Shown here: piece by piece, positions 15,931 through 46,705 of the stretch
Position numbering within the stretch: the first letter of the stretch is position 1
Layout: each line of letters opens with the position of its first letter
From: a candidate division WOR-3 bacterium
GTDB taxonomy: Bacteria > Hydrothermota > Tepidihabitantia > Tepidihabitantales > Tepidihabitantaceae
DNA length: 48,325 bases
Reading direction: 5' to 3'
Assembly: GCA_016935775.1 (NCBI GenBank)
Contig: JAFGQF010000278.1
Coordinates: 1-48,325 of the forward strand
Translations under genes and position numbers: made by a program
Notes under the pieces: generated by a model
The model's input: the letters and a program-made list of their open reading frames with translations, nothing else
Told to the model about the DNA's origin: nothing
The model's database searches: none

Positions 15931-15935
15931 GAAGC

Positions 15936-26428: not shown

Positions 26429-26435
26429 GGCGCAA

Positions 26436-26463: not shown

Positions 26464-26485
26464 GATGGGCGGTGCGCTTGCCGGC

Positions 26486-26513
26486 TTGACAGCGGGACGC
26501 GCGAAAATAGAAT
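26486..26513 (+). promoter_or_regulatory. Promoter of the leaderless type for the rnf operon
   Basis: TTGACA (26486-26491), 16 nt, TAGAAT (26508-26513), 9 nt, ATG (26523). No Shine-Dalgarno is present. Confidence 0.5.
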
Positions 26514-26522
26514 GGCGGTCTG

Positions 26523-27836: not shown

Positions 27837-27840
27837 CGCC

Positions 27841-30650: not shown

Positions 30651-30738
30651 CCAATGCGCATCACCATAGCGGGCGCAGACGGGGTGACGGTCCCGGCGGG
30701 TTGCGTTCAGCACCCCCGCACGGTCACCCGAAGCTAAG

Positions 30739-31761: not shown

Positions 31762-31765
31762 AAGA

Positions 31766-31793
31766 CTGCGGGCCACCCGAGGGCGGCCCGCAG
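31766..31793. terminator. Strong hairpin between convergent rnfB and the hydrogenase operon (bidirectional terminator candidate)
   Basis: CTGCGGGCC-A-CCC-GA-GGG-C-GGCCCGCAG forms 9+3 bp of stem. It lies 5 nt after the rnfB stop and 17 nt after the minus-strand stop at 31810. No U-tract is present. Confidence 0.45.
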
Positions 31794-31809
31794 AAACATC
31801 AGCAGAGGG

Positions 31810-32427
31810 CTACTGGCCCCACTGCTCGTTGAGGTACACCTTGCGTCGACACTCCGGGCAGAGGACTCGCATTGTGCCGGACCTGTAGGGAGAATCGTCC
31901 GTGTCGGGCATGGGCGGCAACGAAACACCCAAAGACTCATACTTGGCCAGAAAGAGAGTCGGGTTGGCGCTGGCCAGGTCCCCGACTTTGTGAGACAGGT
32001 AGACGAGGTGAGCCTTGGCGGCAAATGGCTCACCGCACTTCTCGCAGAAGGCGAGCTCCTTCTCAACCGAGGTACTCCAGTCCTCGGACCTTTCGGTGCG
32101 TGCGGTGTCAAACTCAGTCGACTGGTAGATGGCATCGCCGACGGTGCAATAGCGCACGCACTGTCCGCAGTAGATGCAGCGCTCGGCGTGGTGGATATTC
32201 CGGATCACGCCCTTCTCTCGGTCGACCAGTATCTCACGGGCATTGGTCGGACAGACATTGCAGCACGCGCCACAACAGATGCACTTCTCCTCGCGGAACT
32301 TGAGCATGCCGCGGTAGTTGGGATGGACCGAATCAACGGACTTGGGAAACCTCGTGGTGAACGGACCACCGAAAACCGCCCGCAGGGCTTCGCCGAGTTC
32401 ACGCAGCTTGGGCAGGGGGACTCTCAT
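31810..32427 (-). CDS. NuoI/MbhN-like 2x[4Fe-4S] ferredoxin subunit with a Cys4 C-terminal extension
   Basis: CICCGACCNVCP and CIYCGQCVRYC are followed by an extra ~70 aa with FCEKCGEPF...VLCPECRRK. The ATG overlaps the mrpG stop (TAATG). Confidence 0.8.
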   Translation of the reverse strand: MRVPLPKLRELGEALRAVFGGPFTTRFPKSVDSVHPNYRGMLKFREEKCICCGACCNVCPTNAREILVDREKGVIRNIHHAERCIYCGQCVRYCTVGDAIYQSTEFDTARTERSEDWSTSVEKELAFCEKCGEPFAAKAHLVYLSHKVGDLASANPTLFLAKYESLGVSLPPMPDTDDSPYRSGTMRVLCPECRRKVYLNEQWGQ

Positions 32428-32777
32428 TACTGCTCCTCGATAATCGAATCGGCCCCGCGGTCAGCAGTGAATTCGTCTCTGATCGTACCTCTCCAGAGCT
32501 TCACCCCGAACAACAACGAACCACGGGAAAGAGCGTGGGACGCGACCGGCAGGTTGAAGATGACGAACAGCACCGCCACCAAAGCCTTGATACCGAGCGA
32601 GTCAAAGCCGGCGATCAAGAAGATGCCAAAAAGAATGCCGCACGTGCCGAGCGTGACGCTCTTCGTGGCCGCTTGCATCCGGTTGTAGAGGTCCGGGAAA
32701 CGAACCAACCCAAGGCAGCCAAGCAGGTTGAACACCACGCCGGCAACGATGAAGAACCAGCCGATGGTGTCAGTCAT
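32427..32777 (-). CDS. mrpG: Mrp/Mnh antiporter subunit G
   Basis: MTDTIGWFFIVAGVVFNLLGCLGLVRFPDLYNRMQAATKSVTLG is the MnhG signature. The ATG lies inside ORF 32427..32846. Confidence 0.85.
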   Translation of the reverse strand: MTDTIGWFFIVAGVVFNLLGCLGLVRFPDLYNRMQAATKSVTLGTCGILFGIFLIAGFDSLGIKALVAVLFVIFNLPVASHALSRGSLLFGVKLWRGTIRDEFTADRGADSIIEEQ

Positions 32778-33024
32778 CAAGACTCCTCCCGGACAGGTAC
32801 TTTGCCAGCGCAAGGGTTGCGACGAACGATATGATCGCCAGGGCAATCGACAGGTCGAGCAGGTAAGCCAGCCGCAAACGCAACCCCATCAGGGCCGTTA
32901 TGCTCGAGAAGATAACCGCCATGACATCGACCGCGATCACCCGGTCAGGTATGCTGGGTCCGCGCAGCACTCGGTACAGGCAGAAGAACGCCCCCAGCAC
33001 AAGTAGCACAATCAGGATCGTCAT
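32770..33024 (-). CDS. mrpF: Mrp/Mnh antiporter subunit F
   Basis: MTILIVLLVLGAFFCLYRVLRGPSIPDRVIAVDV... contains the MnhF GP-x2-DR motif. Confidence 0.85.
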   Translation of the reverse strand: MTILIVLLVLGAFFCLYRVLRGPSIPDRVIAVDVMAVIFSSITALMGLRLRLAYLLDLSIALAIISFVATLALAKYLSGRSLDD

Positions 33025-33515
33025 TCAAAAATCCTCGCCAACAGTCGCTCAAACGGGCCCTTGATGATCCGCGCGGCCTCGTCAGGGTCGTCGGTGCGGA
33101 CATCAATCCAATGGATGTAGAGAATGTCGCCCTGCATCTCGACTGTCATCGTGCCCGGGGTCAGGGTAATCGAATTGGCCAGGAAGGTCCGCGCCAACTC
33201 GGACTTCAGGCTGGTACGGATCTTCACGATGCCCGGCTTGAGCATCAGGCCCGGGGCTACCACTCGCAACGCCACGTCAATATTAGCCTTGAGACACTGG
33301 TAAGCGAACACGGGAATGTAGACCAGCAGCCAGAACCAACGTCTCGGGTTGAACAGGCGCACCGGGGCAAGCGGAAGTTCGCCGCCGAAGACGATTGCTG
33401 CGAAGAAGCTCAAGATCACGCCGGCAACCAACGATGGCAAACGCACGCTCCAGGTCAGGAGCAACCATATGGCCATTGCGGCAACCCAGTAGACCAGCGT
33501 TCGCGACAATCTCAC
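33021..33515 (-). CDS. mrpE: Mrp/Mnh antiporter subunit E
   Basis: 164 aa, with two N-terminal TM helices followed by a soluble domain. Position and size are typical of MnhE/MbhA. ATGA overlap with mrpF. Confidence 0.75.
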   Translation of the reverse strand: MRLSRTLVYWVAAMAIWLLLTWSVRLPSLVAGVILSFFAAIVFGGELPLAPVRLFNPRRWFWLLVYIPVFAYQCLKANIDVALRVVAPGLMLKPGIVKIRTSLKSELARTFLANSITLTPGTMTVEMQGDILYIHWIDVRTDDPDEAARIIKGPFERLLARIFE

Positions 33516-33518
33516 TCG

Positions 33519-35024
33519 CTACCCCCCCAGCACCATCTGCGCATAAGTAAGCGGAATCGTCAGCACCTTGGCGGCGGGGTTGACAATCCAGTCGAGTACC
33601 GGGCGGAAACCCAGGCCGAATGCCAGTGCCAGGGCAGTAAGCATAACCAGCGCCACGAGAATCGGCGCCGGAGCTTCTCGCACGAGGCTGGAATTCCGGT
33701 CCCGGTTCACGAACAGCACGTTGTTGATTACCTTCAGCAAGTAGCCGAGCGTCAGGACGCTGAACAAACCGGCTACGATCGCAGGCCAGTACATCCGTGC
33801 CTCAACCGCGCCCACGATGATGAACAGCTTTGAGAAGAAACCGGCAAACGGCGGAACGCCGCTCATCGACAGTGACCCGAGGACATAGGACCAGGAAGTC
33901 ACCGGCATGTTCCGTTCGAGTCCGCCCAGGTTGCCGATCTCGCGGGTCCCGGTCTGCCGCTCGATAGACCGCGAGGCCAGAAAGAGAAGTCCCTTGGTAA
34001 CTGCGTGGCTCAGAACATGGAACAGGGCACCGACAATCGCCCAGTAGTTGCCGATGCCCAGACCGAGCACGATGTAGCCGACCTGGCTGACCGTTGAGTA
34101 CGCCAGCAGTCGCTTGTAGTCCTTCTGGTTGATTGCCAGCAGCGATGCGGCGATGATCGACAGCAAACCCAGGCCGACCAGCAAATTGAAGAACTGCGGG
34201 GCCACCGACCTCGTCAACCCGAAGACATTGAACACAACCCGGCTCATCGCGTAAACCCCGAGAACCTTGATGAAAACGCCCGAGAGCATTGCCGAAACCG
34301 GCGCGGGCGCCGAGAGGTGTGCGTCGGGCAACCAGGAGTGGAATGGCATCATCGCCATCTTGATGGAGAACCCGACAAGCATCGTAGCCAGGACGAACCA
34401 GGACAACGGCGTCAGTCCACCCGCCTGCAGAACTCGCGCCATGTCGGCCATGTTCAGCGTCGAGGTGTGAGCGTACAGCATCGCCACCGATAGGAGTATC
34501 AGGAGACTGCCGACCTCGCCCATAACCATGTACTTGAAACCGGATTCGAGCTCCTCGGCCCGCGTCCCGAACGCCACCAGCGCGTAGGAAGCGATCGCCG
34601 CGATTTCGATGAAGACAAACATGTTGAACATGTCACCGGACAGGGCGACCCCGTTCAGACCTGCCAACAGCAACATAAACAGGCTGTAGTACTTCCAGCG
34701 GCCGGTGTACTGGTCCAGGTATCGAGTCGAGAACAGCAGGGCCGGGAAACCTACCAAGTTGGTGATCAGAACGACCAGGGCAGTCAGCGAGTCGTAGACC
34801 AGTACGATGCCGACCGGCGGCATCCAACCGCCCATCGCGTAGACGGCGGGGAGTGATCCGCCCGCCAGCGCGGCGACACCGTATACTGCGAAACCAACCA
34901 GCACCGCGCCCACAAGATTACCAACGACGTCGGCCAAGCCTTTCCAGAGCCTCGACAGCAACGGGATCAGGAACGCTCCACAGAGCGGCACGATTATGAA
35001 GAGCGGCAGCATCCTGGTCAGCAC
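33519..35024 (-). CDS. mrpD: MrpD/NuoM-type antiporter-like subunit
   Basis: 501 aa and polytopic, with the Proton_antipo_M core MPFHSWLPDAHLSAPAPVSAMLSGVFIKVLGVY and LLAYSTVSQVGYIVLG. Confidence 0.9.
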   Translation of the reverse strand: MLTRMLPLFIIVPLCGAFLIPLLSRLWKGLADVVGNLVGAVLVGFAVYGVAALAGGSLPAVYAMGGWMPPVGIVLVYDSLTALVVLITNLVGFPALLFSTRYLDQYTGRWKYYSLFMLLLAGLNGVALSGDMFNMFVFIEIAAIASYALVAFGTRAEELESGFKYMVMGEVGSLLILLSVAMLYAHTSTLNMADMARVLQAGGLTPLSWFVLATMLVGFSIKMAMMPFHSWLPDAHLSAPAPVSAMLSGVFIKVLGVYAMSRVVFNVFGLTRSVAPQFFNLLVGLGLLSIIAASLLAINQKDYKRLLAYSTVSQVGYIVLGLGIGNYWAIVGALFHVLSHAVTKGLLFLASRSIERQTGTREIGNLGGLERNMPVTSWSYVLGSLSMSGVPPFAGFFSKLFIIVGAVEARMYWPAIVAGLFSVLTLGYLLKVINNVLFVNRDRNSSLVREAPAPILVALVMLTALALAFGLGFRPVLDWIVNPAAKVLTIPLTYAQMVLGG

Positions 35025-35025
35025 A

Positions 35026-35364
35026 TCATCCCCTTAGGCGCCGAATCTCGGTGATGTCGAACGTGTGGTACTTCTCATAGATGCGCATGGCGAAGGCAAG
35101 CATGAGTGCCGTGGTGGCCAGCCCGATGACAATCGAGGTCAGCACCAACGCCTGCGGCAGCGGGTCCACGAAGTCCTGCGTCATCCCCAGCCTCGTGATG
35201 ATTGGAGCGATCGCGCCCTGCTTGAAGCCGATGAAAGCGAACAGCAGGTTCACAGCGTACTCCATCAGGCTGAACCCGATGATAATCTTGATGATGTTGC
35301 GCTTGAGAACAATTGCGTACAACCCCAAGAGGAAAAGCAACAGGCAGGCGATGAACGGTACCAC
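35026..35364 (-). CDS. mrpC: MrpC/NuoK-like subunit
   Basis: VVPFIACLLLFLLGLYAIVLKRNIIKIIIGFSLMEYAVNLLF... is the MnhC/NuoK pattern. GTG 35364 lies 2 nt after the upstream stop, within ORF 35026..35853. Confidence 0.8.
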   Translation of the reverse strand: MVPFIACLLLFLLGLYAIVLKRNIIKIIIGFSLMEYAVNLLFAFIGFKQGAIAPIITRLGMTQDFVDPLPQALVLTSIVIGLATTALMLAFAMRIYEKYHTFDITEIRRLRG

Positions 35365-35366
35365 GG

Positions 35367-35807
35367 CTAATCCTTCATCACGAAGCGGGAAGCACCGAGC
35401 GCAAGGAAAATGGCGAAGAGCCCGGCCCCGACCTTCATTGCGATCGCTATATTGGCAAGCGGAATCGTGCCGGCACTGAACAGCGTCAGCGGTTCTCCGA
35501 CCTTCGGCCAGAGGTTTGACAGGAACTGGTGCCCGGCAAGGTAACCGGCAAGCCCTATGGCAAGGAAACCCAACCCGCCGAGGCTTTCGAAGACCGACGA
35601 GAAGGTGTAGCGGTGCTGCTCGACGTTTTCGACAGAACCGAAGGCCAGTGACACGAGAATGAAGGCTGCCGCAATCAGCACGCCCCCGGCGAACCCGCCA
35701 CCCGGGGTTAGATGCCCGTGCAGGACAATATAGCAACCGAACAGGAAGAGCATCCCGGCGACGAGCCTCGTCACCGATTGGACGATCACAGTCATTCCCC
35801 GGCTCAT
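35367..35807 (-). CDS. mrpB: MrpB/MnhB subunit
   Basis: LHGHLTPGGGFAGGVLIAAAF is the MnhB signature. ATGA overlap with the upstream gene. Confidence 0.85.
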   Translation of the reverse strand: MSRGMTVIVQSVTRLVAGMLFLFGCYIVLHGHLTPGGGFAGGVLIAAAFILVSLAFGSVENVEQHRYTFSSVFESLGGLGFLAIGLAGYLAGHQFLSNLWPKVGEPLTLFSAGTIPLANIAIAMKVGAGLFAIFLALGASRFVMKD

Positions 35808-36358
35808 GCGTGCTCCTCCCCGGCATCGGCCTTCCGACCGATCTGCCGGACAATCGTCAGTACACCAACCACGGCGGTGAAGAGGACAACCGCCTCGCCG
35901 ATGGTATCGTACGCCCGGAAATCAAGCACTATCGCGGTCACCAGATTGGCGGCGCCGCTCTGATTCAGGCCGACTGCCAGGTAGTTGCCTGCCACCCGCA
36001 TCAACGGGGAACCGAAAACCGGCAACTCGCGCAGGACACTGGTCATGACGGCAACGAACATCAACACGAAAATCCCGTACAGTACCGCCGGCAGAATCAT
36101 CCGCGACGTTATGCGCAACTGGACGGTGCTGTCGTCATGGGTAGTTCGCAGGATAACAGCCGCGAAGAACACGACCGCCAGGATCTCGACGACGATCTGG
36201 ACGATTGCGAGATCTGGAGCCTGGACGAGGATGAACAGGATGGCCACGCTGAACCCGACCATTCCCATCGAAACTGCCGCTGCAAGCAAATCCTTTATCT
36301 CGATAGCGACCACCGCCGCAGCCAACATCGCCACCAGCAGAACGTATAGCTCAATCAT
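35804..36358 (-). CDS. MbhD/MbhE-like (DUF4040 + MnhB-related) membrane subunit
   Basis: An N-terminal DUF4040-like helix bundle is followed by GAANLVTAIVLDFRAYDTIGE, the motif seen at the MrpA C-terminus and in MbhE. Confidence 0.75.
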   Translation of the reverse strand: MIELYVLLVAMLAAAVVAIEIKDLLAAAVSMGMVGFSVAILFILVQAPDLAIVQIVVEILAVVFFAAVILRTTHDDSTVQLRITSRMILPAVLYGIFVLMFVAVMTSVLRELPVFGSPLMRVAGNYLAVGLNQSGAANLVTAIVLDFRAYDTIGEAVVLFTAVVGVLTIVRQIGRKADAGEEHA

Positions 36359-36365
36359 CGTCGCG

Positions 36366-38270
36366 TTACCTGAGCACCAGGATTAGGTAGAACAGCGCCG
36401 CCCCGAAGAACACCCATGAAACGTAGAGCGGAAGCATGCCGGTCATCAGCTTGGAGACACCGGCACCGACGACCAGCACGAATCGGCCGAGGAGCCCGAA
36501 TGCCTTGTCAATTGTCTCGTCCAGCACAACTCGGAGGGCGCTGCCCAGCCCGCCAAGAACCCCACGCACCCAGTTGAACAGGTCGAACGAGCCAGCCTCG
36601 CCGAACCTGAGCAGGTCGCCAAGCACCGGCAGATTCTTGACCGAGGAATAGAAGGCGGTGCCCGTCACCCGGCTCTCCTCGTTGTCTGCGATCCGCTCAC
36701 CGCCGACGAAGGTGCGGCCGGCAACAGGCTTGCGGGCGGTACCAAGCAGGTAAATCACCGCCCCGACGCCAAGTGCAATGAACATCAGCACCGTAACGAG
36801 CTCCGGTTGCCAGATCCCGATCGGGTCGACATCAAACGGCAGGGACGGATAAATCAAGTGACGCAGCGGGAGCCAGTAGGCAAACACGCCGAAGGCAATG
36901 CAGAGCAGTGCCAACGAAATGGTCGGCAACCACATCGTGAAACCGCCCTCGCGAACACGGCTTAGTTCGGCCGGCCGCTGGCCGAAAAAGACCGCGTGCA
37001 GCAGCTTCAGGAACGAGGCCAGTGTTAACACGCTGCCGAGCATCGCCGCCACCAAGAAGACCGGGAAGAGCCGGTTACCCTCGCGGGCGATTTCAACCAC
37101 GCCCTGGTAGACCATCCACTTGGAAACGAAGCCGTTGAGCGGCGGCACGCCGGCGATCGCCATCGCGCAGACCAAGAACGAGAAGAAGGTCAGCGGCATC
37201 TGCCGGGCGAGGCCTCCGAGCTTGTCGATCTCGTCGGTCTTGGTCCAGTGCTCGACCGTGCCGGAGGAAAGGAACAGGCCGGTCTTGTAGATCGAGTTGT
37301 TGAGCATGTGGAAGAGTCCGCCGGCTATGCCAATCGGCGTGCCGGTGCCGATTCCCAGCACCATGTAACCGACCTGCGACACGGCATGGAATGAGAGCAG
37401 CCTCGTTACCCGCTTCTGGACCAGCGCCATTATGACGCCACCGAGGATTGTGACCGCGCCGACCGCCATCAGAACATTGCGCAGCGCCATGTTGCTGGCG
37501 ATGTTGAACATGCTGACCGAGAGCCGGGTCAGCAGGTAAATGCCGAGCAGCTTGTCGATCGAGGCCGGGATCAACGCCATGACCGTCGCTGGGGAGGTCT
37601 CGGATGCCTGCGGTATCCAGCTGTGCAGCGGCATCGATCCGGCCTTGGCCAGCGCGCCGACAGCCACCAGAACGAAGGCCGTGATCATCAACGGGTCATT
37701 GAGCGGCATCGGGGCACGAGGCACGAGGTCGACCCAGCCGTTCTTCACCAATAACAACGCGACGCCCAGCAGCATCGCGAAATCGCTCAGTCCGACGATC
37801 ACCAGAGCCTTGCTTGCCGCCCGCTCTGCGCCCGTACGACCGACGAGCAGGATGCCGTAAAGCAACACCAGCAACAGTCCCCAGAAGAACAGCAGGGTAG
37901 GCAGGTTTGCGGCCAGCAGGACGCCGTTGGCCCCGGCCAGCGCGAGCATCACGTAAAGGAAGTAACCACGCACGCCCGTCCAGCTCTTCATGTAGCGGAA
38001 CGAGAACAGCGTTACAAGGACGCCGAAGGCGGCAACGAACAGCAACACGAACCCGGACAGGGCATCGAGCCTGAAACTGACATTCAGGCCGGTAAACCTG
38101 ACCAGCTCAAAAACCGCCGGGGATCCCCGCGAACTGATGAACAGGCGAACAGCGAAATAGAGGGTGAGAACCGCCCCGATGAAGCTGAACTCGTTCCTCA
38201 ATCGGCCAATCAGCCAACCAAACAGCCCGGCCGCGATTGGAACCAGGACAACCAACAGCAACGGCGTCAT
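36366..38270 (-). CDS. NuoL/MrpA-type antiporter-like subunit (divergent)
   Basis: 634 aa and polytopic. It has the Proton_antipo_M-like core MPLHSWIPQASETSPATVMALIP and LLSFHAVSQVGYMVLG, plus a long C-terminal extension as in NuoL/MrpA. Confidence 0.8.
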   Translation of the reverse strand: MTPLLLVVLVPIAAGLFGWLIGRLRNEFSFIGAVLTLYFAVRLFISSRGSPAVFELVRFTGLNVSFRLDALSGFVLLFVAAFGVLVTLFSFRYMKSWTGVRGYFLYVMLALAGANGVLLAANLPTLLFFWGLLLVLLYGILLVGRTGAERAASKALVIVGLSDFAMLLGVALLLVKNGWVDLVPRAPMPLNDPLMITAFVLVAVGALAKAGSMPLHSWIPQASETSPATVMALIPASIDKLLGIYLLTRLSVSMFNIASNMALRNVLMAVGAVTILGGVIMALVQKRVTRLLSFHAVSQVGYMVLGIGTGTPIGIAGGLFHMLNNSIYKTGLFLSSGTVEHWTKTDEIDKLGGLARQMPLTFFSFLVCAMAIAGVPPLNGFVSKWMVYQGVVEIAREGNRLFPVFLVAAMLGSVLTLASFLKLLHAVFFGQRPAELSRVREGGFTMWLPTISLALLCIAFGVFAYWLPLRHLIYPSLPFDVDPIGIWQPELVTVLMFIALGVGAVIYLLGTARKPVAGRTFVGGERIADNEESRVTGTAFYSSVKNLPVLGDLLRFGEAGSFDLFNWVRGVLGGLGSALRVVLDETIDKAFGLLGRFVLVVGAGVSKLMTGMLPLYVSWVFFGAALFYLILVLR

Positions 38271-38279
38271 CTCATCTCC

Positions 38280-39698: not shown

Positions 39699-40876
39699 CG
39701 TCCCATCCTCGCGCGAACACGCTCGGTCTTCTGCCAGGAAAGCTTCAAGAGTTCGTTCCAGGTGTACTTCAGCCGTCCGTCCTCGAACGCCGCCATCCGC
39801 TCGGTGCAGCAGTAGCACGGGTCCACCGCCGCCAGCGTGAGCGCGGCATCAGCGATGGTCCCGCCGACGCAGGCAACCTTGTTGGAAGCGATGTTCATGT
39901 AGCTGGGTGCCCGGACTTTGTGCCGCAGCGGCCGATTGGTCCCGTCGGAACGCATGTAGTGGAAGACTTCGCCGCGCGGGGCCTCGGTCCGGCCACAACC
40001 CTCACCCGGCGGGACCTCCTCGATCCGGGCCTCGATCGGTCCCTCCGGGATACGATCGAGGCACTGCCGGATAATCTTCACCGACTCGATCATCTCCAAC
40101 ATCCGAACCTTGGTCTTGGCAAGCACGTCACCTTCCGGGAAGCAGATCACGTTCCAGTCGACCAAGCCGTAGGCGGCGTGCGGCTCGTCACGTCGGACGT
40201 CCCAGGGAACCCCGGACCCGCGCGAAGTCGGCCCGGTGGTCGAGTATGCCAGGGCCTGCGCCCGGGTCAGGATACCGACCCCCTCGAGCCGCGAGAGAAT
40301 CACCGGGTCATCGAGCACTGCCTTAGTCAACATCCAGACCTTCTTCTCGACCAGGTCCATCGCGTCCCGGATCGGCTTGACCATTTCGGGCCTGAGGTCG
40401 TGCCGAACTCCGCCCGGCTTGTTCATCGCGTAGTGGTTACGGTTGCCGACCAGCATCTCGAACACCTCGAGGACGTGCTCGCGATACTTCCAGGCCCACA
40501 TCCACACCGTGTTGTAGCCGATGAAGTGGCCGGCCAAGCCAACCCAGAGCAGGTGCGAGTGAATCCGCTCGAGTTCGTGGACGATGGTTCGGAGGTACTT
40601 CGCCCGCTCCGGGATCTCGAGGTTGCAGATGTCCTCAACCGCCATCACCGCAGCCATCGGGTGCGAGTTCGAACAGATACCGCAGATCCGCTCGACCAAG
40701 AACGGAACCTGGTCATAGGTCAGCTCTGGCGAGATGAACTCGTGTCCACGGTGGTTGTAGCCGATGTGGATCTCGATGTCCACCACTTTCTCGCCCTCGA
40801 CAACCAGCTTGAAGAACTCCGGTTCTTCCTGCAGAGGATGGTACGGGCCGATCGGGACGATTCGCCTACCGGCCAT
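39695..40876 (-). CDS. Group-4 [NiFe]-hydrogenase large subunit (NuoD/MbhL/HycE-like)
   Basis: The N-terminal Ni-Fe motif ERICGICSNSH and the C-terminal motif DPCYCCTER are both present. The latter is followed by a 33-aa tail. Confidence 0.9.
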   Translation of the reverse strand: MAGRRIVPIGPYHPLQEEPEFFKLVVEGEKVVDIEIHIGYNHRGHEFISPELTYDQVPFLVERICGICSNSHPMAAVMAVEDICNLEIPERAKYLRTIVHELERIHSHLLWVGLAGHFIGYNTVWMWAWKYREHVLEVFEMLVGNRNHYAMNKPGGVRHDLRPEMVKPIRDAMDLVEKKVWMLTKAVLDDPVILSRLEGVGILTRAQALAYSTTGPTSRGSGVPWDVRRDEPHAAYGLVDWNVICFPEGDVLAKTKVRMLEMIESVKIIRQCLDRIPEGPIEARIEEVPPGEGCGRTEAPRGEVFHYMRSDGTNRPLRHKVRAPSYMNIASNKVACVGGTIADAALTLAAVDPCYCCTERMAAFEDGRLKYTWNELLKLSWQKTERVRARMGR

Positions 40877-41318
40877 GCTTCTCCGCCCTTCGTTCGTAGT
40901 CCCGTCGCAGGGGCTTCCAGTCCGGGTTCCAGTCGGTGTCGGAAGTCAGTAGCGGCTGCATGTCCGGGTGACCAGGAAAATCAATGCCCAGCAGTTCGTG
41001 CATCTCCCGCTCGATCCAGTCGGTGGAAGGGAACCACCCGGCCTGCGAGTCAACCTGAGGGTCATCCTTGGGAACAACGACCTTCAGGGTGTAGAGCCCG
41101 CCGCTGTCGTCGTCCGAGAAATGGTAGAGCACCTCGAAGCCCTCGCGGGTATCGATGCCGGTGCAGATGCACAGCCTCATGCCGCGCTCCTGGTGCAGGA
41201 ACCGACAGGCATCGGTCAGCCTCTCACGGGGAACGCGGATGTAAAGCCGGTTCTCATTGTGCCGGTGGTAGTCGGCTTCCGGGAACCGCTCGCGCAGCTT
41301 AGACTCGGCTTCTCTCAT
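40866..41318 (-). CDS. NuoC/MbhK-like subunit
   Basis: 150 aa. ...LCICTGIDTREGFEVLYHF...WIEREMHELLGIDFPGHPD is the NuoC pattern. ATGA overlap with the NuoB-like gene. Confidence 0.85.
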   Translation of the reverse strand: MREAESKLRERFPEADYHRHNENRLYIRVPRERLTDACRFLHQERGMRLCICTGIDTREGFEVLYHFSDDDSGGLYTLKVVVPKDDPQVDSQAGWFPSTDWIEREMHELLGIDFPGHPDMQPLLTSDTDWNPDWKPLRRDYERRAEKHGR

Positions 41319-41731
41319 AGCTTACTCAGCGCCTTCACCACGCCGAGTATCATCGCCTCCGGCTTGGGCGGGCAGCCGGGTATGTAGGCGTGGACCGGCA
41401 GGTGCTTGTCATAGGGACCGACCACGTTGTAGGAATTGCGGAAGATGTGGGTGTTGCACGTGCAGGAACCGATACAGATGACCAGGCACGGCTTCGCGGC
41501 CTGCTCGTAAACCTCGAGCACGCGGGGCAGGCTCTTGCGATTGATCACGCCAGTCACCAGCAGTGCGTCGGCGTGACGGGGCGACCCCACGAGCACGACC
41601 CCGAAGCGCTCCACGTCGTAGCGCGGGGTGAGCAGTTCGAGAATCTCGATGTCGCAGTTGTTGCAGGGCGCGGCCGCCAAGTGATAGACCCACGGCGACT
41701 TCTTCAGGCCCCAGAGTCCGAGTTTGCTCAT
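41315..41731 (-). CDS. Hydrogenase small subunit (NuoB/MbhJ/HycG-like)
   Basis: MSKLGLWG...APCNNCDIE...CIGSCTC...IPGCPPKPE carries the four Cys of the proximal [4Fe-4S]. The ATG lies inside ORF 41315..41884. ATGA overlap. Confidence 0.9.
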   Translation of the reverse strand: MSKLGLWGLKKSPWVYHLAAAPCNNCDIEILELLTPRYDVERFGVVLVGSPRHADALLVTGVINRKSLPRVLEVYEQAAKPCLVICIGSCTCNTHIFRNSYNVVGPYDKHLPVHAYIPGCPPKPEAMILGVVKALSKL

Positions 41732-42690
41732 AGTCTCGCGTATGCCAGAATCACGGCGAGTATACCGAATCCCCCGAGCAGAAGCCAGAAGAACCTCAGT
41801 GCGTGGTCGATACGGAGCCGTGGATTGGTGTTGCGAATCAGGATCACGAGCACGACAATCGCCAGGAACTTGAGAATCGCCCACCAGTCACCGAACCCGC
41901 CCCACAGCACGGTGATCAGGAACAGCGGCAGCAGGAACAGCATCATCGCCCGGGTGATTTTGAACATCGCCAGAGCGACGCCGGAATACTCGGCGTAGAC
42001 GCCGGTCATAATCTCCTGCTCGGCCTCTGCCTGGTCGAACGGCACCAACCCGAGCTTGGCCTGGACAGCCAGCAGCACCAACACGGCGGCAATGACACCG
42101 GAGACCGAGTACAAGAACGGTCCTGCCTGCTGCTGGGCCATCACGATGTGACCGAGCCGGATGGTCCAGATGCCGCCCGAGACCTGGGCGGTCTTGATGA
42201 TCGGCACGACCAACGCCAGCAGGAAGGGAAGCTCGTACCCGAAGTACAGTGTCATCTCCCGCGAGGCACCGACTGCGGACAAGGGGTTTCGGCTGGCCGA
42301 GGCGCCGATGATCAGTCCCAGCGGCGGCAACGCAAAGAGATAGACCAGCACTATCAGGTCGCCGACAAAGGACCCCTGCGGGTTGAGGTTGACGTTGAAC
42401 AGCAGCACGGCGGTGATCGTCATCGAGATCATCCCGAGCATCGGGGCGAGCAGAAAGACCAGACGGGATGCCCCCTCAGGTACGATCGTCTGCTTGAGCA
42501 GCAGCTTGAACAGGTCGGCGAACGGCTGAACGAAAGGCGGCCCCTTGCGGTACTGGACCCGGGCTGTCACTACCCGGTCCACCCAGCTCAGCACGAAGCC
42601 TATAACCACCGAAAAAAGGAATCCGGGGAACACCAGCAGGCTGAAAGCCAGCCGCCAGCCGGTCCAGGCGCCCTGCCAGAACCCGCTCAC
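41728..42690 (-). CDS. NuoH/MbhM/HycD-like membrane subunit
   Basis: RVQYRKGPPFVQPFADLFKLL...ASREMTLYFGYELP...PFDQAEAEQEI..GVYAEYSG is the NuoH signature. The GTG 42690 start gives a GTGA overlap. Confidence 0.9.
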   Translation of the reverse strand: MSGFWQGAWTGWRLAFSLLVFPGFLFSVVIGFVLSWVDRVVTARVQYRKGPPFVQPFADLFKLLLKQTIVPEGASRLVFLLAPMLGMISMTITAVLLFNVNLNPQGSFVGDLIVLVYLFALPPLGLIIGASASRNPLSAVGASREMTLYFGYELPFLLALVVPIIKTAQVSGGIWTIRLGHIVMAQQQAGPFLYSVSGVIAAVLVLLAVQAKLGLVPFDQAEAEQEIMTGVYAEYSGVALAMFKITRAMMLFLLPLFLITVLWGGFGDWWAILKFLAIVVLVILIRNTNPRLRIDHALRFFWLLLGGFGILAVILAYARL

Positions 42691-43154
42691 GGCCGCCTCC
42701 AGTGAACCGACCGGGCGGCGATGCCGACCCCGGTCTTCACTTCCTTGAGCTCCGACTCCTCGACGTACTGCAACGCGCCGGTCGGGCATGATGCCGCGCA
42801 CCGCGGCCCGCCCGCGCGGTCCGAGCAGAGGTTGCACTTCTGCGAGGTGCTGCGCAGCAGGTAGGTGTCCATCACGCCAAACGGACAGGCCAGCACGCAG
42901 GACCGACAGCCGACGCAGTGGAAACTGGAGCGCGAGACGATACCTGTGTCCGGGTCCTTGCGGATGACCTCGAACGGGCAGGCGGCCATGCACAGCGGCT
43001 CAGCACAGTGCCGGCAGGAGAGCGGGAAATATGCATCCGGCGTGACCTCGGCGTAGCGGACCCGCGCCTCGTGTTTGAACCGGCTCTGGCAGGCCGCCTC
43101 GCACGACCGGCAGCCGATGCAGTAGTCCATCCGCAGCACGAGTCGCTTCGCCAT
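42687..43154 (-). CDS. HycB/FdhB-like 4x[4Fe-4S] ferredoxin subunit
   Basis: MAKRLVLRMDYCIGCRSCEAAC...CRHCAEPLCMAACP...CVGCRSCVLACPFG...CNLCSDR...CAASCPTGA matches a HycB-type ferredoxin. Confidence 0.85.
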   Translation of the reverse strand: MAKRLVLRMDYCIGCRSCEAACQSRFKHEARVRYAEVTPDAYFPLSCRHCAEPLCMAACPFEVIRKDPDTGIVSRSSFHCVGCRSCVLACPFGVMDTYLLRSTSQKCNLCSDRAGGPRCAASCPTGALQYVEESELKEVKTGVGIAARSVHWRRP

Positions 43155-43155
43155 C

Positions 43156-44808
43156 TCAGTGTAGCATGTAGCGAGCGCCGCGGCGGTCCGGGGCATGCTC
43201 GGACGGCGCCTGAACCCTGGACGCCAGCTTCTCGATCTTCACATTGACCGGGGCGACCGTGGTCATCCCGGAAACCTCATCAACCGCGAGCGGAAACAGC
43301 GCGCGATTCTCGTGCACGTTGGTACCGACCGTCGCCGTCCCGGCGGGAATCTGCCCGGAAACGAGAACGCCGAAATCGCGTGCCCCGACCGGGCTGGTGA
43401 CACGGACAAAGCTGTCGCCGTCAACTCCCAGCGACCCGGCATCAGTCGGGTTCAGCGCCAGCCGGTCCTCGGGCTCGTAGAAACCCCGCAGCCCGATTGC
43501 CTTCTTCTCACCCAGCAACAGGACGCCCTCGCCGCCCCGTTTCAACCCGGCCGCCTTGTGCGCCATCTCGACGACCGCAGCGGGCTTGTGCTCGACCCGG
43601 GCAGGCAGGTCCGCCTCGGCTGCGGTCCCGAGCAACTCGACAACCCGGCCGAAATCGCGACTGCCGCTCAAGGGAGGCGCCAGCGGCTCGCGGCTGGCCG
43701 GGCCCCAGTAGGTCGAGGCGGTCGCGGCCCGCTCGAGCTCCGCGGTCACCGGCAGGACCAGCCCGGGCACCGGCGGGTCGGGCACGAAGATCGAAGTCGC
43801 GACCCGGTACTCGGCCCTCGCCGCCTCCGGGAACACCTCGGCATAACTGTCGGGATACATCCCGCCGGTCCAGAACAGCAGCCGGACCTCGCCGGCCTTG
43901 AGCGCCGCGCGCAGGGCGGTGAAATCTTCGCCCCCCGGCGGCAGGGAAGTCTCCCGGAAACCGACGAACGGCTTGCCGGCGGCCTTCGCAACCAGCTGGC
44001 CAGCCAGGCTGTGCAGCAACGGGTGGAAGACGCGCCCGAAATGGGCCGCGACCCCGACGAAACCCGGGACGGCGGGCGCCAGCATCGCCGCCGCGGCTTC
44101 CAGTTGCCCGCGAGCAACCCCGGCCGCCGTCGCCAGCTTGTCCAGATCGGCCTTGATATTCTTGTCCAGCAAGGCGGCCAGGGCAACCATCGCCAGCGGC
44201 TCGGTTCCCGGCCGGACCTGGATGAATGAGTGGGCGAAACCGGACTGCCGGGTGCGGACCGAGTCGATAACCACCAGCCGGTTCTTCCGGTCGGCGTAGC
44301 GCGCGTCTAGCATCCGCCAGACCGCCACCGGGGAGGTGTTGAACACGTCGCCGACCAGCAGCATCGCCTTGGCGAACTCGACGTCGGCCAGGGTGGCGTC
44401 CTTCGTTCCCTCGAGCCGGCAGCCGAGCGCGTTCTCGGGTTCGATGTGGCCGCAGACAACGTGCTTCGTGCCAATCTCCCTGGCCAGGCCGAACAGCCGC
44501 CGGACTTCGTCTTCGCCCCGGCCTCGGCTGTACACGAGTGCAACCTGCTCCGGCCTGACCGCCGCGCGCCAGCCCCGCACCAGGTTCGCCGCCTCGTCCC
44601 AGGAAATCGCCCGGCCATCAAGCAACGGGTAGGCCAGCCGCTTCGGGTGGTCGATGACTATGCTCGCCGAGTTGCCGCGCGGGCAGAGCCGACCCCGGTT
44701 GACCTCGGCCTCGGACGGATACTCCATCCGGTACTGGTAGCCGTCAAACACCACCGCCGAGGTGCAGCCGTTGAGGCAGAACGGGCAGGTGGTCTTCCTG
44801 GTTTCCAT
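43156..44808 (-). CDS. Molybdopterin (Mo/W-bisPGD) oxidoreductase family subunit, FdhA/FdhH-like, non-canonical
   Basis: METRKTTCPFCLNGC...(26 aa)...LCPRG is the N-terminal [4Fe-4S] motif. It has a MopB-like body and a C-terminal beta-barrel-like end (FVRVTSPVGARDFGVLVSGQIPAGT). At 550 aa it is shorter than typical Fdh, and there is no in-frame TGA. Confidence 0.75.
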   Translation of the reverse strand: METRKTTCPFCLNGCTSAVVFDGYQYRMEYPSEAEVNRGRLCPRGNSASIVIDHPKRLAYPLLDGRAISWDEAANLVRGWRAAVRPEQVALVYSRGRGEDEVRRLFGLAREIGTKHVVCGHIEPENALGCRLEGTKDATLADVEFAKAMLLVGDVFNTSPVAVWRMLDARYADRKNRLVVIDSVRTRQSGFAHSFIQVRPGTEPLAMVALAALLDKNIKADLDKLATAAGVARGQLEAAAAMLAPAVPGFVGVAAHFGRVFHPLLHSLAGQLVAKAAGKPFVGFRETSLPPGGEDFTALRAALKAGEVRLLFWTGGMYPDSYAEVFPEAARAEYRVATSIFVPDPPVPGLVLPVTAELERAATASTYWGPASREPLAPPLSGSRDFGRVVELLGTAAEADLPARVEHKPAAVVEMAHKAAGLKRGGEGVLLLGEKKAIGLRGFYEPEDRLALNPTDAGSLGVDGDSFVRVTSPVGARDFGVLVSGQIPAGTATVGTNVHENRALFPLAVDEVSGMTTVAPVNVKIEKLASRVQAPSEHAPDRRGARYMLH

Positions 44809-44811
44809 CGC

Positions 44812-45627
44812 CTAGACGAACGGGTCCGGGATACCCTTGACCTGGTCCCAGGTGAGGACCGGGCCGTCCTTGCAGGTGAAGTACGGTCCCAGCTTGCAGT
44901 GGCCGCACTGGCCGAGGCCGCAGGACATGTTGGTTTCCATCGACAGGTAGATGTTCTGGCCCTGGAAACCGGCCTCGAGCAGCTTCATCGTCACGAACTT
45001 CATCATTATCGGCGGCCCGCAGACCACGGCGATGCTCTCCGCCTCGTTGCAGGGTATCTCGTCCATCAGGCAGGTGACGACGCCGACCTTCTTCATCCAC
45101 TTCTCGTCCGAGACGTCCACCGACAGGTCGATGTCGACCTTCTTCAGCTTCTCCCATTCCGGGATCAGGTACTTGTAGACGATATCGGCCGGGGTCCGCG
45201 CGCCGTAGCGGAGAAAAACCCGGCCGTACTTGTCGATCTCGTGGGTCAGAGCGAGGAAGAGCGCGCGCAGCGGGGCCAGCCCGACGCCGCCGCCGACGAT
45301 GTAGATATCCCGTCCCTCGAACTTCTCGAGCGGGTAGCGGGCACCGTACGGCCCGCGGATGCCGACCTTGTCCCCGACCTTGAAATTGAAGAGCGCGCCG
45401 GTCGCCCGGCCCACCTTCATTATCGTCATCTCGATGAGGTCGCGGTTGAAATGGGATGAACTGGGCGTGAACGGCGCCTCGCCGAACCCGGGCATCGTCA
45501 GTTCGATGAACTGCCCGGCAAGAAACGGCACCTCCTGCTCGGGTCTGAGCACGAAGGTACGGATGTTCGGGGTCTCGTCAATCGTCTTGATGATCTCGGC
45601 CGAGATGGGCTGGAAGATGTTGGTCAT
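44812..45627 (-). CDS. FAD/NAD(P)-binding oxidoreductase with a C-terminal [2Fe-2S] (AsrB / sulfhydrogenase gamma HydG / PyrK-like)
   Basis: The sequence runs MTNIFQPISAEIIKTIDETPNIRTFVL...APFTPSS...IVGGGVGLAPL...MSCGLGQCGHCKLG. The ATG lies inside ORF 44812..45933. ATGA overlap. Confidence 0.85.
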   Translation of the reverse strand: MTNIFQPISAEIIKTIDETPNIRTFVLRPEQEVPFLAGQFIELTMPGFGEAPFTPSSSHFNRDLIEMTIMKVGRATGALFNFKVGDKVGIRGPYGARYPLEKFEGRDIYIVGGGVGLAPLRALFLALTHEIDKYGRVFLRYGARTPADIVYKYLIPEWEKLKKVDIDLSVDVSDEKWMKKVGVVTCLMDEIPCNEAESIAVVCGPPIMMKFVTMKLLEAGFQGQNIYLSMETNMSCGLGQCGHCKLGPYFTCKDGPVLTWDQVKGIPDPFV

Positions 45628-46667
45628 TGCAGGACGTCCAGGACCACCTTGCGCACATCGATCTTGCCCATACAGACCGCGGTACAGCGACCGCAACCCG
45701 AGCAGGCGGGCATCCCCTGCCAGGTCTTGAAATGGCTGAACTTGCAGAAAAAACGGTTGTAGAACCGCTTGACGAACTCGGCGCGCGGGTTGGCCCCGCC
45801 GCCGACCCGGGCATAAGCCGCGATGTAGCAGGCGTCCCAGACCTTGGTCCGCTCCATCTCGCCCTGCCCCCTGGCCTTGTCGTAGAGCAAGAAGCAGTAG
45901 CAGGTCGGGCAGGCCATCAGGCAGCCGTAACACTCGACGCAGTCGGCCGCGTGCTTCGACCAGAACTCCTTGTCCTGGTTCCGTTGCCAGATCCGGTCGG
46001 CCGTGTCCGGGGCGAAGCGCTTCGGGTTCACCTCGGCCAGCCGCTTGCCGGCGGCCTCGCGGCTCGCCTGTCGCGCCGCGAGTTGGGCCTCGGTCGCCTC
46101 GACCGCTTGGGAACTCCCCAGTAATTCCTCGCCCCGCCCGGTCAGCGGCTCCAGCACCCAGCCGCCCTCGACCACCGACAGGGCGACATCGGCCTCGTCC
46201 TTCTCCTCGTCGCCGGCAAAGGGCCGGTTGCCGACGAGGTTGCAGAAACAGGTGTCGGCCGGGCTCGGGCAGTCGGCGACGACAACGCAGGTCGCTGCGC
46301 GGCGCCGGGCGTAGGCTTCATCCTTGAAATCGCCCTCGACGAACATCTTGCGGTTCACGCGCAGGGCGACCGCGTCGCAGGCTGAAGCCCCGAACAAAAC
46401 CCGTTTCTCGGGCTCGGGCGAGACGAACTTGTCCGGGAAGGTGGCGACCTTCTCGCGCGGGTTGAAGAAGAAACTCTTGACCGGCTCCGACGCCCGGATG
46501 CGCTCGAGTCCCCACTCCGGTGCGTCGGCTGCGCCCAACATCCCGGGGTCGAGCCGCTGCCAGTGGACCTGGTCCTTGATTATCGCCGGGAAAAACACCA
46601 CCCGGTCCGCGACAAGAACCGACAGCCAGGCCTTCTGCTTCTCTGTCGGGAGAAACCGGGGCTTCAC
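45624..46667 (-). CDS. 4Fe-4S protein of the AsrA / sulfhydrogenase beta (HydB) type
   Basis: 347 aa from GTG 46667. CVECYGCLMACPTCYCF and CSGCGRCTAVCMGKID are present. The upstream part of the 514-aa ORF is Arg/Gly/Asp-rich junk and contains the promoter. Confidence 0.8.
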   Translation of the reverse strand: MKPRFLPTEKQKAWLSVLVADRVVFFPAIIKDQVHWQRLDPGMLGAADAPEWGLERIRASEPVKSFFFNPREKVATFPDKFVSPEPEKRVLFGASACDAVALRVNRKMFVEGDFKDEAYARRRAATCVVVADCPSPADTCFCNLVGNRPFAGDEEKDEADVALSVVEGGWVLEPLTGRGEELLGSSQAVEATEAQLAARQASREAAGKRLAEVNPKRFAPDTADRIWQRNQDKEFWSKHAADCVECYGCLMACPTCYCFLLYDKARGQGEMERTKVWDACYIAAYARVGGGANPRAEFVKRFYNRFFCKFSHFKTWQGMPACSGCGRCTAVCMGKIDVRKVVLDVLQ

Positions 46668-46677
46668 GTGGACGCCA

Positions 46678-46705
46678 AAAATACAGATTTTGACCTGGAT
46701 GTCAA
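46678..46705 (-). promoter_or_regulatory. Promoter of the near-leaderless type for the 18-gene hydrogenase operon
   Basis: On the minus strand: TTGACA (46705-46700), 16 nt, TATTTT (46683-46678), 10 nt, GTG (46667). Confidence 0.5.

Follow-up and report, generated by a model that had tools for sequence, protein, structure and literature searches.

Which energy-converting complex is encoded by 18 tightly packed genes of a candidate division WOR-3 bacterium, and with which partner does it exchange electrons? The stretch of DNA analysed here, called the window throughout, is the 48,325-nucleotide contig JAFGQF010000278.1 (assembly GCA_016935775.1). In it, 18 consecutive open reading frames (ORFs), numbered g1 to g18 in the direction of transcription, occupy the minus strand from 46667 down to 31810. 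An earlier note, made from the sequence by eye, had read these genes as a group-4 [NiFe]-hydrogenase core joined to a full Mrp antiporter set, an FdhA-like Mo/W subunit, and an AsrAB/HydBG-like NAD(P)H module, and had not recognised the whole as a described system. We find that the locus is almost certainly a hun operon in an 18-gene form, which consists of HunA to HunP together with a MopB-fold insert (g3) and a third antiporter-like subunit (g9). It is a new WOR-3 member of the named, biochemically uncharacterised Hun kind and not a new system.

Identification of the operon as Hun

Glass et al. 2021 (bioRxiv 10.1101/536078, later Environ Microbiol) named a 16-subunit "Hun" Ni-Fe hydrogenase-Na+/H+ antiporter supercomplex (HunA-P), and reported it from Atribacteria, Firmicutes, Omnitrophica, Elusimicrobia, and Bacteroidetes metagenome-assembled genomes (MAGs) as well as from Kosmotoga isolates. 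There, HunA and HunB are described as AsrAB-like, HunC as an Fe-S protein, HunD-G as NuoH/B/C/D-like, HunH-O as Mrp-like, and HunP as NuoI-like. Moreover, HunG is assigned to HydDB group 4g, distant from other 4g members and with the motif CGIC-CYCC, in contrast to the CxxC without a third-position Cys of other group-4 enzymes, and a 4Fe-4S molybdopterin-domain protein is placed between HunB and HunC in some MAGs. The operon in the window has the same order, with AsrAB-like HunAB, a CGIC-CYCC core, Mrp-type HunH-O, and NuoI-like HunP, and is colinear with HunA-P throughout, save for the insertions g3 and g9, the first of which sits exactly between HunB and HunC. As gene order, the CGIC...CYCC signature, and the position of the molybdopterin protein all match the published Hun, we assign the locus to it, and this gene-for-gene correspondence overturns the view that the architecture had not been described.

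Nor is the exact composition new. Matheus Carnevali et al. 2019 (PMC6349859, Suppl. Note 5) reported an "enigmatic" group-4 hydrogenase from Saganbacteria RX5A, with relatives in Zixibacteria and Omnitrophica, whose cluster comprises Mrp-like subunits, an unclassifiable molybdopterin oxidoreductase, and cooF-, asrA-, and asrB-like genes. A related group-4b module followed in 2026 (Front Microbiol, PMC13582414), where Fdh subunits that lack Cys/Sec are paired with homologues of the beta and gamma subunits of Pyrococcus furiosus sulfhydrogenase I (SHI). What is new here is the comparative evidence that points to a dispensable and probably non-catalytic Fdh-like subunit.

We made the gene assignments with Pfam and NCBIfam profile searches, to which matches among PDB sequences were added for solved structures, and start codons were selected to give conserved N-termini. 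Every assignment made by eye in the earlier note was backed by Pfam, with NCBIfam in agreement, in this search of all 18 products. The large subunit HunG (g8, 39695-40876, 393 residues) matches the Complex1_49kDa and NiFeSe_Hases families, and its matches among solved structures are MbhL (2.6e-78) and HycE (1.2e-72). Its L1 motif is RICGICSNSH (C65 and C68) and its L2 motif DPCYCCTER (C354 and C357), and in alignment these four cysteines fall on the Ni-Fe ligands of MbhL (6cfw_L) and HycE (7z0s_E), so the ligands that had been called intact by eye are indeed so. The remainder of the core is formed by HunD (g5, 41728-42690, 320 residues), a NuoH/MbhM/HycD-like membrane subunit (Pfam NADHdh, 3.8e-59); HunE (g6, 41315-41731, 138 residues), a NuoB-like hydrogenase small subunit with cysteines C23, C26, C90, and C120 (Oxidored_q6, 7e-27; NCBIfam NuoB subfamily above cut-off); and NuoC-like HunF (g7, 40866-41318, 150 residues; Complex1_30kDa, 2e-27).

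In a collection with one genome per species (~185,000 species), large-subunit relatives occur at 588 places, and the motif and gene-order comparisons concern the best 80 of these. DPCYCC occurs in 80 of the 80, as against DPCLSC in MbhL and DPCYSC in HycE and HyfG. This extra L2 cysteine (CYCC; 39809-39817, residues 354-357), present throughout the 80 family members, is given as a Hun signature in the description by Glass et al. HunG is 57% identical to the large subunit of Kosmotoga olearia and 57-65% identical to those of Kosmotoga and Omnitrophota, and the next clades (Bathyarchaeota, Methanoregula, and Armatimonadota) lie at 44-46%. When searched against 50%-identity representatives, only two full-length ones were more than 50% identical to HunG, one of them that of K. 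olearia. Among solved structures, MbhL is the closest relative (40.7% identity, with 34% for HycE).

Distribution and gene order

The best 80 loci belong to WOR-3, Stahlbacteria, Latescibacterota, Omnitrophota, and Planctomycetota MAGs, and are strictly colinear when all 18 products are compared with them by tblastn. Thirty-five of these loci are complete, that is, span gene 1 through gene 18. The exact 18-gene order was seen in 21 of them, which makes this the commonest form; a 16-gene form with neither the MopB gene nor g9 was found in eight, the 16-gene form with g9 in two, and a form with the MopB gene and a single pump subunit in four. Overall, g3 is present in 25/35 and g9 in 23/35. On the basis of these gene orders, an architecture that includes the AsrAB-like genes is the norm for the large-subunit clade. 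The subgroup, which has a name but no biochemical characterisation, thus commonly shows the order found in the window, a circumstance that the earlier note had itself named as one that would tell against its claim of novelty.

In our neighbour-joining (NJ) tree of large subunits, for which MbhL, HycE, and HyfG were the only outside references, the MopB-lacking and the MopB-containing clades are sisters. More distant homologues of g3 were found in a Hun with a single pump subunit (locus L087) and in a cluster devoid of Mrp subunits (L088). The latter, on a contig of 9502 bases (JGI 3300082317), encodes HunB, MopB, HunC, NuoH, NuoB, NuoC, the large subunit, one antiporter-like subunit, and a NuoI-like protein. 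Because of this cluster, the soluble input module can be said to pair also with a minimal, Ech/Hyc-like membrane arm. Judged by gene content, the soluble input module is the constant part among relatives, and the membrane arm the variable one.

A cultured carrier, named as such by Glass et al., is Kosmotoga olearia (L085; CP001634.1, 608398-629606; Kole_0560-0575), in which a 16-gene Hun is followed by hycI and hypF/C/D. Pollo et al. 2017, in their RNA-seq supplement, give Kole_0567 as a pseudogene; its place is between the genes for the large subunit and the NuoK-like protein. The operon table of the same paper splits the cluster into two predicted transcription units around Kole_0567. Our gene calls for this stretch gave intact ORFs of 599, 178, and 152 residues.

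The membrane arm

A complete Mrp (CPA3-type) set is encoded downstream of the core, with g10 and g11 as a split MrpA and g12 to g17 as MrpB, C, D, E, F, and G. HunH (g10, 36366-38270, 634 residues) is the MrpA-N/NuoL-like antiporter subunit (Proton_antipo_M and Proton_antipo_N; matched end to end by TIGR01974, NuoL), and HunI (g11, 35804-36358, 184 residues) a fusion of MbhD and MbhE that corresponds to the MrpA C-terminal domain (Pfam MbhD and MbhE; MrpA residues ~600-790 in NCBIfam). These are followed by HunJ (g12, 35367-35807, 146 residues), which is MrpB/MnhB (MnhB, 7.7e-28); HunK (g13, 35026-35364, 112 residues), which is MrpC/NuoK-like (Oxidored_q2, 1e-26; antiporter subunit C in NCBIfam); HunL (g14, 33519-35024, 501 residues), an MrpD-like antiporter subunit (Proton_antipo_M, 1e-69); HunM (g15, 33021-33515, 164 residues), which is MrpE (MNHE, 7.8e-42); HunN (g16, 32770-33024, 84 residues), which is MrpF (MrpF_PhaF, 1.9e-12); and HunO (g17, 32427-32777, 116 residues), which is MrpG (PhaG_MnhG_YufB, 2e-22; TIGR01300 above cut-off). 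Together with g9 (38280-39698, 472 residues), an extra HyfD/NuoM/N-like subunit that is not in the canonical 16-gene Hun (Proton_antipo_M, 3.8e-60), the operon holds three antiporter-like subunits, and both Pfam and NCBIfam uphold the full Mrp set and the three pumps that had been read by eye. Escherichia coli Hyf likewise has three pump subunits, so this number is not unique to the 18-gene Hun.

In g9 and g14, all four key charged residues of the transmembrane helices (TM) are retained, namely the Glu of TM5 and the Lys of TM7, TM8, and TM12. In g10, the TM7, TM8, and TM12 lysines are kept, and Gly (FFWGLLL) stands in place of the TM5 Glu that NuoL/M/N, HyfB/D/F, and HycC share, the one deviation that we noticed in the set.

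The G+C content is 0.59-0.62 over approximately 32000-40000 as against 0.64-0.72 elsewhere in the window, and the AT skew is strongly positive (0.2-0.3) over the membrane-subunit genes. This composition likely stems from the hydrophobic codons of the minus-strand membrane genes, with horizontal acquisition as a possible alternative source of the low G+C.

The flavoprotein module and the electron partner

At the head of the operon stand HunA (g1, 45624-46667, 347 residues, GTG start), an AsrA/SHI-beta-like protein with multiple [4Fe-4S] sites (Fer4_22, 2e-23), and HunB (g2, 44812-45627, 271 residues), a flavoprotein with FAD, NAD(P), and [2Fe-2S] regions (FAD_binding_6, NAD_binding_1, and DHODB_Fe-S_bind). 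Their best solved matches are the beta (9nez_B, 7.6e-31) and gamma (9nez_C, 5.1e-46) subunits of P. furiosus SHI, respectively, an enzyme that oxidises NADPH. HunB carries the FAD motif, the NAD(P) loop, and the [2Fe-2S] cysteines of this pair, and HunA its [4Fe-4S] cysteine motifs, so the AsrAB/HydBG-like module proposed from the letters alone is borne out. Against the NCBIfam equivalogs (ShyB/HydB/AsrA for HunA), HunA reached 124 bits for a cut-off of 690, and HunB 163 for a cut-off of 650. Since these cut-offs are far from reached, the two are homologues and not orthologues of SHI beta and gamma.

A set of 63 HunB orthologues from several phyla shows no or hardly any variation in GEAPFTPSS (FAD), GGGVGxAPL (dinucleotide loop), GAR, CGPP, and the [2Fe-2S] cysteines. 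Because the FAD and NAD(P) motifs are invariant to this extent, we predict a working pyridine-nucleotide site in HunB, and such a conserved site seems much more likely than the ferredoxin-only input of Glass et al. In the related group-4b clusters, the SHI-beta/gamma-type module has likewise been read as an NADPH site (PMC13582414).

Further along the peripheral arm, HunC (g4, 42687-43154, 155 residues) is a HycB/CooF-like ferredoxin with four CxxCxxCxxxC-type motifs in its translation (Fer4_11, 1e-18; DmsB/HybA/HydN-like in NCBIfam). HunP (g18, 31810-32427, 205 residues) is a HycF/HyfH/NuoI-like protein with two [4Fe-4S] sites and a C-terminal extension that bears a cysteine pair (Fer4 families), and in NCBIfam it is matched best by the formate hydrogenlyase Fe-S subunit and by HyfH. 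As HunC is of the HycB/CooF/HydN type and HunP matches HycF/HyfH, the peripheral arm would thus be wired like that of E. coli formate hydrogenlyase (FHL), with the flavoprotein module either replacing the formate dehydrogenase or sitting beside it.

Ferredoxin was the electron donor proposed in the description of Hun by Glass et al. In such a complex, reduced ferredoxin (e.g., from pyruvate:ferredoxin oxidoreductase) would deliver electrons by way of HunABC or HunP, H2 would be evolved and Na+/H+ moved outwards for ATP synthesis, as in an Mrp-linked Mbh, and the dinucleotide site of HunB would be a relic or serve regulation. In favour of this, MbhL, the nearest large subunit of solved structure, depends on ferredoxin, the same description (10.1101/536078) has group 4g as putatively ferredoxin-coupled, and the energy released from ferredoxin to H2 would suffice for a multi-pump arm. 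Moreover, an rnf operon adjoins the hun operon, which implies that ferredoxin is central to the energetics of the host. What makes a ferredoxin-driven Hun unlikely in our opinion is that the FAD/NAD(P) motifs of HunB are kept without change in so many orthologues, that the nearest characterised homologues of HunA and HunB are the NADPH-oxidising SHI subunits, and that, by inference from E. coli FHL (PDB 7z0s), the HycB-like subunit would take up the HycF/NuoI face at which ferredoxin would dock.

The MopB-fold subunit g3

Between HunB and HunC, g3 (43156-44808, 550 residues) encodes a protein of MopB fold whose N-terminal part bears a [4Fe-4S] (FS0) site (Pfam Molybdop_Fe4S4; Molybdopterin and Molydop_binding match weakly). 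Its AlphaFold2 model (pLDDT 93) shows a complete four-domain MopB fold, for which Foldseek gave formate dehydrogenases and Nap as the best matches (TMq 0.75-0.79, 15-17% identity), and the four FS0 cysteines and the basic residue after them (R44) are conserved. Thus far, the reading of g3 as an FdhA-like subunit holds for its fold and its FS0 site, but not for the catalytic residues. At the position of FdhH Sec140-His141, the family has VCGH, ACSY, ASTY, ARTY, YWGF, or AYAG, and the motif conserved at the catalytic loop is [H/Y]-x-E-P-E. In all g3 members, the stretch with Arg333 (RGQNNVQGACDMG) is deleted, as it is in the cofactor-free C-terminal domain of E. coli NuoG. In FdhH numbering, g3 accordingly lacks the combination of Sec/Cys140-His141 and Arg333 expected of a competent formate dehydrogenase, with the local alignment being ambiguous. 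In addition, g3 matches the Fdh-alpha family TIGR01591 with 68.6 bits (cut-off 666) and over residues 6-214 only, and its NCBIfam matches also include the Mo-free QrcB and NuoG.

The gene is also not the constant partner of the hydrogenase that Fdh is in the formate hydrogenlyases of groups 4a and 4b. The Omnitrophota and Planctomycetota operons lack it, with 13-181 nt between HunB and HunC, and so do those of Kosmotoga. Where present, it is the fastest-evolving subunit, with 25-30% identity between sub-clades as compared to 50-80% for the others.

These observations bear directly on the formate-linked function that had been suggested from the sequence, namely an Mrp-linked formate hydrogenlyase like Thermococcus onnurineus Fdh2-Mfh2-Mnh2, in which formate would be oxidised at MopB, H2 evolved, and ions pumped. 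The set of MopB, HycB-like, HycF-like, group-4 core, and Mrp subunits does mirror FHL and group 4b, and by sequence as well as by fold, g3 is matched best by formate dehydrogenase alpha subunits. Still, the Sec/Cys-His dyad is not family-wide, the Arg333 segment is gone, the TIGR01591 score is a small part of its cut-off, the MopB gene is missing from many orthologous operons, and the window has no gene for a formate channel within the operon or next to it. Formate is an unlikely substrate of g3 because the protein combines these losses with rapid divergence and absence from orthologous operons. On account of the missing catalytic residues and the dispensable gene, we rejected the formate hydrogenlyase reading, which we regard as very improbable. 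For the comparable subunit of the group-4b clusters, a role other than that of a formate dehydrogenase was inferred as well (PMC13582414). By analogy with the Mo-free NuoG C-terminal domain, the likeliest role of g3 is that of an accessory subunit for electron transfer or scaffolding, and not that of a formate dehydrogenase.

Proposed mechanism

With moderate confidence, we favour Hun as an enzyme that reversibly exchanges electrons between NAD(P)H and protons and couples this to Na+/H+ transport. Its wiring, partner, direction, and ion coupling we infer from what the comparison shows directly, namely the gene content, the homologies, the conserved motifs, and the synteny across genomes. HunB, with its FAD and [2Fe-2S] cluster, would exchange hydride with NAD(P)H/NAD(P)+, and electrons would pass to the [4Fe-4S] clusters of HunA and on to the four-cluster ferredoxin HunC. 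The FS0 cluster of MopB would act as an optional adaptor, through which electrons pass or by which they are held in place. From there, the path would lead via HunP and HunE to the Ni-Fe site of HunG, where 2H+ and H2 are interconverted, and the redox step at the HunG/HunE/HunD interface would drive ion movement through the Mrp module and the extra pump, as in Mbh and complex I. The overall reaction would be NAD(P)H + H+ <-> NAD(P)+ + H2.

With standard potentials of -320 mV for NAD(P)H and -414 mV for H+/H2, the evolution of H2 is uphill at 1 bar H2 and feasible at the low H2 pressures of a few Pa that are usual in anoxic sediments. Because the step from NAD(P)H to H2 is near equilibrium, the complex is expected to be reversible. 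It could then work in three modes, in which a gradient is spent to vent NAD(P)H electrons as H2, a small gradient is gained at low H2, or H2 is taken up to reduce NAD(P)+. In the WOR-3 host, the neighbouring Rnf would supply a link between ferredoxin and NAD+ as well as an ion gradient.

Several points weigh against this proposal. The Hun family is biochemically uncharacterised, and the donor put forward in its description by Glass et al. is ferredoxin and not NAD(P)H. Oxidation of NAD(P)H with H2 evolution yields little or no energy, which sits oddly with three pumps and a full Mrp set, and a stronger reductant such as ferredoxin, or else confurcation, would fit a large ion-translocating arm better. 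In K. olearia, hun is weakly expressed on pyruvate, at 40-150 reads per kilobase per million mapped reads (RPKM; Pollo et al. 2017, RNA-seq supplement). The GART motif, tried as a discriminator between NADH and NADPH, proved uninformative, since it is shared by the PyrK-type small subunit of Nfn. As for g3, its Cys119, placed opposite Sec140 by MAFFT, is conserved to at least 90% in the sub-clade of the window; several motifs that resemble those of a molybdopterin guanine dinucleotide (MGD) pocket (GD..xxxP and IDS) are invariant; and HMMER and MAFFT differ by four residues around the catalytic position. Together, the cysteine, the pocket-like motifs, and the ambiguous alignment make a cofactor-bearing, catalytic MopB subunit conceivable.

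Such a subunit would make Hun a three-terminal, bifurcating or confurcating complex, where an Fe-S network connects the Ni-Fe site, the HunB flavin, and a MopB that handles a third substrate. For group 4b, a confurcation between H2, NADPH, and an unidentified substrate was suggested in 2026, with AlphaFold3 models of the related module showing a three-way branch (PMC13582414). Besides the pocket-like motifs and Cys119 of g3, its invariant EPE at the catalytic loop and its confidently modelled, complete four-domain fold agree with this, and a third reaction would solve the energy problem of going from NAD(P)H to H2. Against it, the Omnitrophota, Planctomycetota, and Kosmotoga operons that are without the MopB gene keep all else, from which it follows that the core reaction is independent of MopB. 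Furthermore, g3 diverges faster than any other subunit, it shares the loss of the Arg333 segment with cofactor-free NuoG, and no bifurcating flavin site is evident. Flavoproteins of the HunB type (PyrK/NfnA) are the non-bifurcating subunit in Nfn, which likewise counts against three terminals. We consider a three-terminal Hun quite doubtful, and retain the two-terminal exchange between NAD(P)H and H2 as our preferred mechanism.

Hun-type operons are widespread, as the 588 large-subunit relatives in the collection attest, and the published reports extend their range to Atribacteria, Firmicutes, Elusimicrobia, Saganbacteria, and Kosmotoga; to these, the window adds a WOR-3 example of the commonest form. 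Carriers of Hun probably determine how reducing equivalents are disposed of as H2 in anoxic sediments and the subsurface. Should electrons be exchanged with NAD(P)H instead of ferredoxin, Hun would tie the NAD(P)H/H2 couple directly to an ion gradient, and this would bear on how complex I acquired its NADH input. To our knowledge, that couple is otherwise linked to a gradient only via Rnf plus Ech/Mbh or via soluble confurcating hydrogenases. As a cultured carrier, K. olearia offers a system in which Hun function is testable.

Operon layout and boundaries

The genes are as closely packed as had been described, all in the same orientation, with spacings from g1 to g18 of -4, 3, 1, -4, -4, -4, -11, -4, 9, 7, -4, 2, 1, 3, -4, -8, and -1 nt; the largest gap is thus 9 nt, and overlaps reach -11. 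The N-terminus of HunA, judged in 60 loci, is conserved from residue 1-6 in 47 of them. Upstream, a candidate sigma-70-like promoter (TTGACA-16-TATTTT; 46678-46705, minus strand; score 10/12) ends 10 nt before the hunA GTG. While the hexamers reported at this place do exist, promoter-like matches in the region number three against 2.5 expected from shuffles. As such matches are no commoner than in shuffles, the element stays a candidate only, and we rejected it as proof of a single transcription unit.

At the other end, a G+C-rich hairpin with a 12-bp stem (31766-31793) lies between the convergent stops of hunP and rnfB, and is followed by a weak U-tract (UCUUUC). The fold of 31745-31812 has a dG of -38.9 kcal/mol (z = -3.8), in keeping with the strong hairpin noticed by eye. 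It is probably a bidirectional terminator that is common to the hun and rnf operons.

Genomic neighbourhood

A complete rnfCDGEAB operon (26523-31761, plus strand) converges on the hun operon. Its products are RnfC (Complex1_51K/RnfC_N), RnfD, an FMN_bind RnfG, two Rnf-Nqr subunits, and the polyferredoxin RnfB. We considered this adjacency as a conserved functional link and rejected it, as rnf lies next to hun in only one (L005) of the 80 related loci; because of this, Rnf is best regarded as local context.

Divergent from hunA, a DUF1893 (TM1506-family) gene lies at 46779-47243 on the plus strand, and the same neighbour is found in seven of the closest WOR-3 loci (L002, L003, L005, L006, L012, L014, and L015). 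The longest ORF that overlaps rnfC (24419-27319, minus strand, 966 residues) has methionyl-tRNA synthetase Pfam matches from residue 300, and for that reason the metG start is probably near 26420 and the overlap artefactual. Three envelope genes occur on the minus strand, for a 540-residue protein with a C-terminal FlgD_ig-type domain, possibly for secretion sorting (5125-6747), for TamB (10667-14005, 1112 residues), and for an Omp85/POTRA TamA-like protein (14072-16021). The window also encodes PriA, a CDF metal transporter, and a lipid A acyltransferase. The host context of TamB, Omp85/TamA, and Rnf that had been noted by eye was therefore found again, and it fits a diderm host.

Comparison with known systems

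Compared to the canonical Hun of 16 genes, the operon in the window has 18, owing to the MopB insert and the third antiporter-like subunit. The phyla that Glass et al. name where they describe the distribution of Hun do not include WOR-3, and the donor proposed there is ferredoxin, whereas the motif evidence from the window favours NAD(P)H. In K. olearia, hycI and hyp genes lie downstream of hun, and in the window, a convergent rnf operon takes this place. The Saganbacteria RX5A hydrogenase (PMC6349859) has, by its published description, the same composition in another phylum. The group-4b clusters (PMC13582414) share the same soluble input, in that an NADPH-type flavoprotein, an Fe-S subunit, a degenerate MopB, and ferredoxins are placed on a group-4 core. 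They differ in having Hyf-type arms (HyfC/HyfE-like; 11-12 genes) and a 4b large subunit, where the window has a complete Mrp set and the Hun signature.

With the group 4d Mbh of P. furiosus (6CFW), Hun shares the NuoH/B/C/D/I-type core, MrpB/C/E/F/G-type subunits, MbhD/E, and, as proposed, redox-driven Na+/H+ transport. Mbh (genes mbhA-N) has one antiporter-like subunit, takes its electrons directly from ferredoxin at MbhN, is devoid of flavoprotein, HycB-like, and MopB subunits, places its Mrp genes before the hydrogenase genes, and has CLSC in L2. In contrast, the window has three Proton_antipo_M proteins, HunAB, and a HycB-like subunit, and HunG falls outside MbhL in the NJ tree. T. onnurineus Fdh2-Mfh2-Mnh2 (4b) and E. 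coli FHL-1/Hyf (4a, 7Z0S) share the MopB-HycB-HycF-small-large wiring and multiple antiporter-like subunits with the window, and the T. onnurineus system also has an Mrp module. Unlike the window, both have their own competent formate dehydrogenase (Sec/Cys-His and Arg) and no NAD(P)H flavoprotein module, and HycE of E. coli, 34% identical to HunG, has a fused NuoC-like domain. The cytoplasmic P. furiosus SHI (group 3b, 9NEZ) resembles Hun in its beta and gamma subunits, which have the FAD motif, NAD(P) loop, 2Fe-2S, and several 4Fe-4S motifs of g1 and g2, but are paired with group-3 large and small subunits.

Lastly, complex I differs from the complex in the window, as the latter has no NuoE, NuoJ, or NuoA equivalents, has MrpE/F/G, and uses a flavoprotein with FAD of the FNR/PyrK type and not the FMN of NuoF; neither NuoE nor NuoF homologues were found in the operon, and all four Ni-Fe cysteines, which NuoD of complex I lacks, are present. 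Since the Ni-Fe ligands are intact, the complex is a hydrogenase without a quinone site. What the two have in common are a NuoB/C/D/H/I/K-type core, three L/M/N-type pumps, and a pyridine-nucleotide flavoprotein input by way of a MopB fold that lacks catalytic residues (cf. the NuoG C-terminal domain). One may speculate, at rather long odds, that the 18-gene Hun is an Mbh-type hydrogenase with a complex-I-like N-module built independently from unrelated parts (an FNR/PyrK flavoprotein, an Fe-S subunit, and a MopB adaptor that, like NuoG, lost its catalysis) and joined to three pumps, or, should MopB hold a cofactor and act on a third substrate, the first ion-translocating three-terminal confurcating [NiFe]-hydrogenase. 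If the former were true, the 18-gene Hun would be a living analogue of the step from a proton-reducing Mbh to an NADH-driven complex I.

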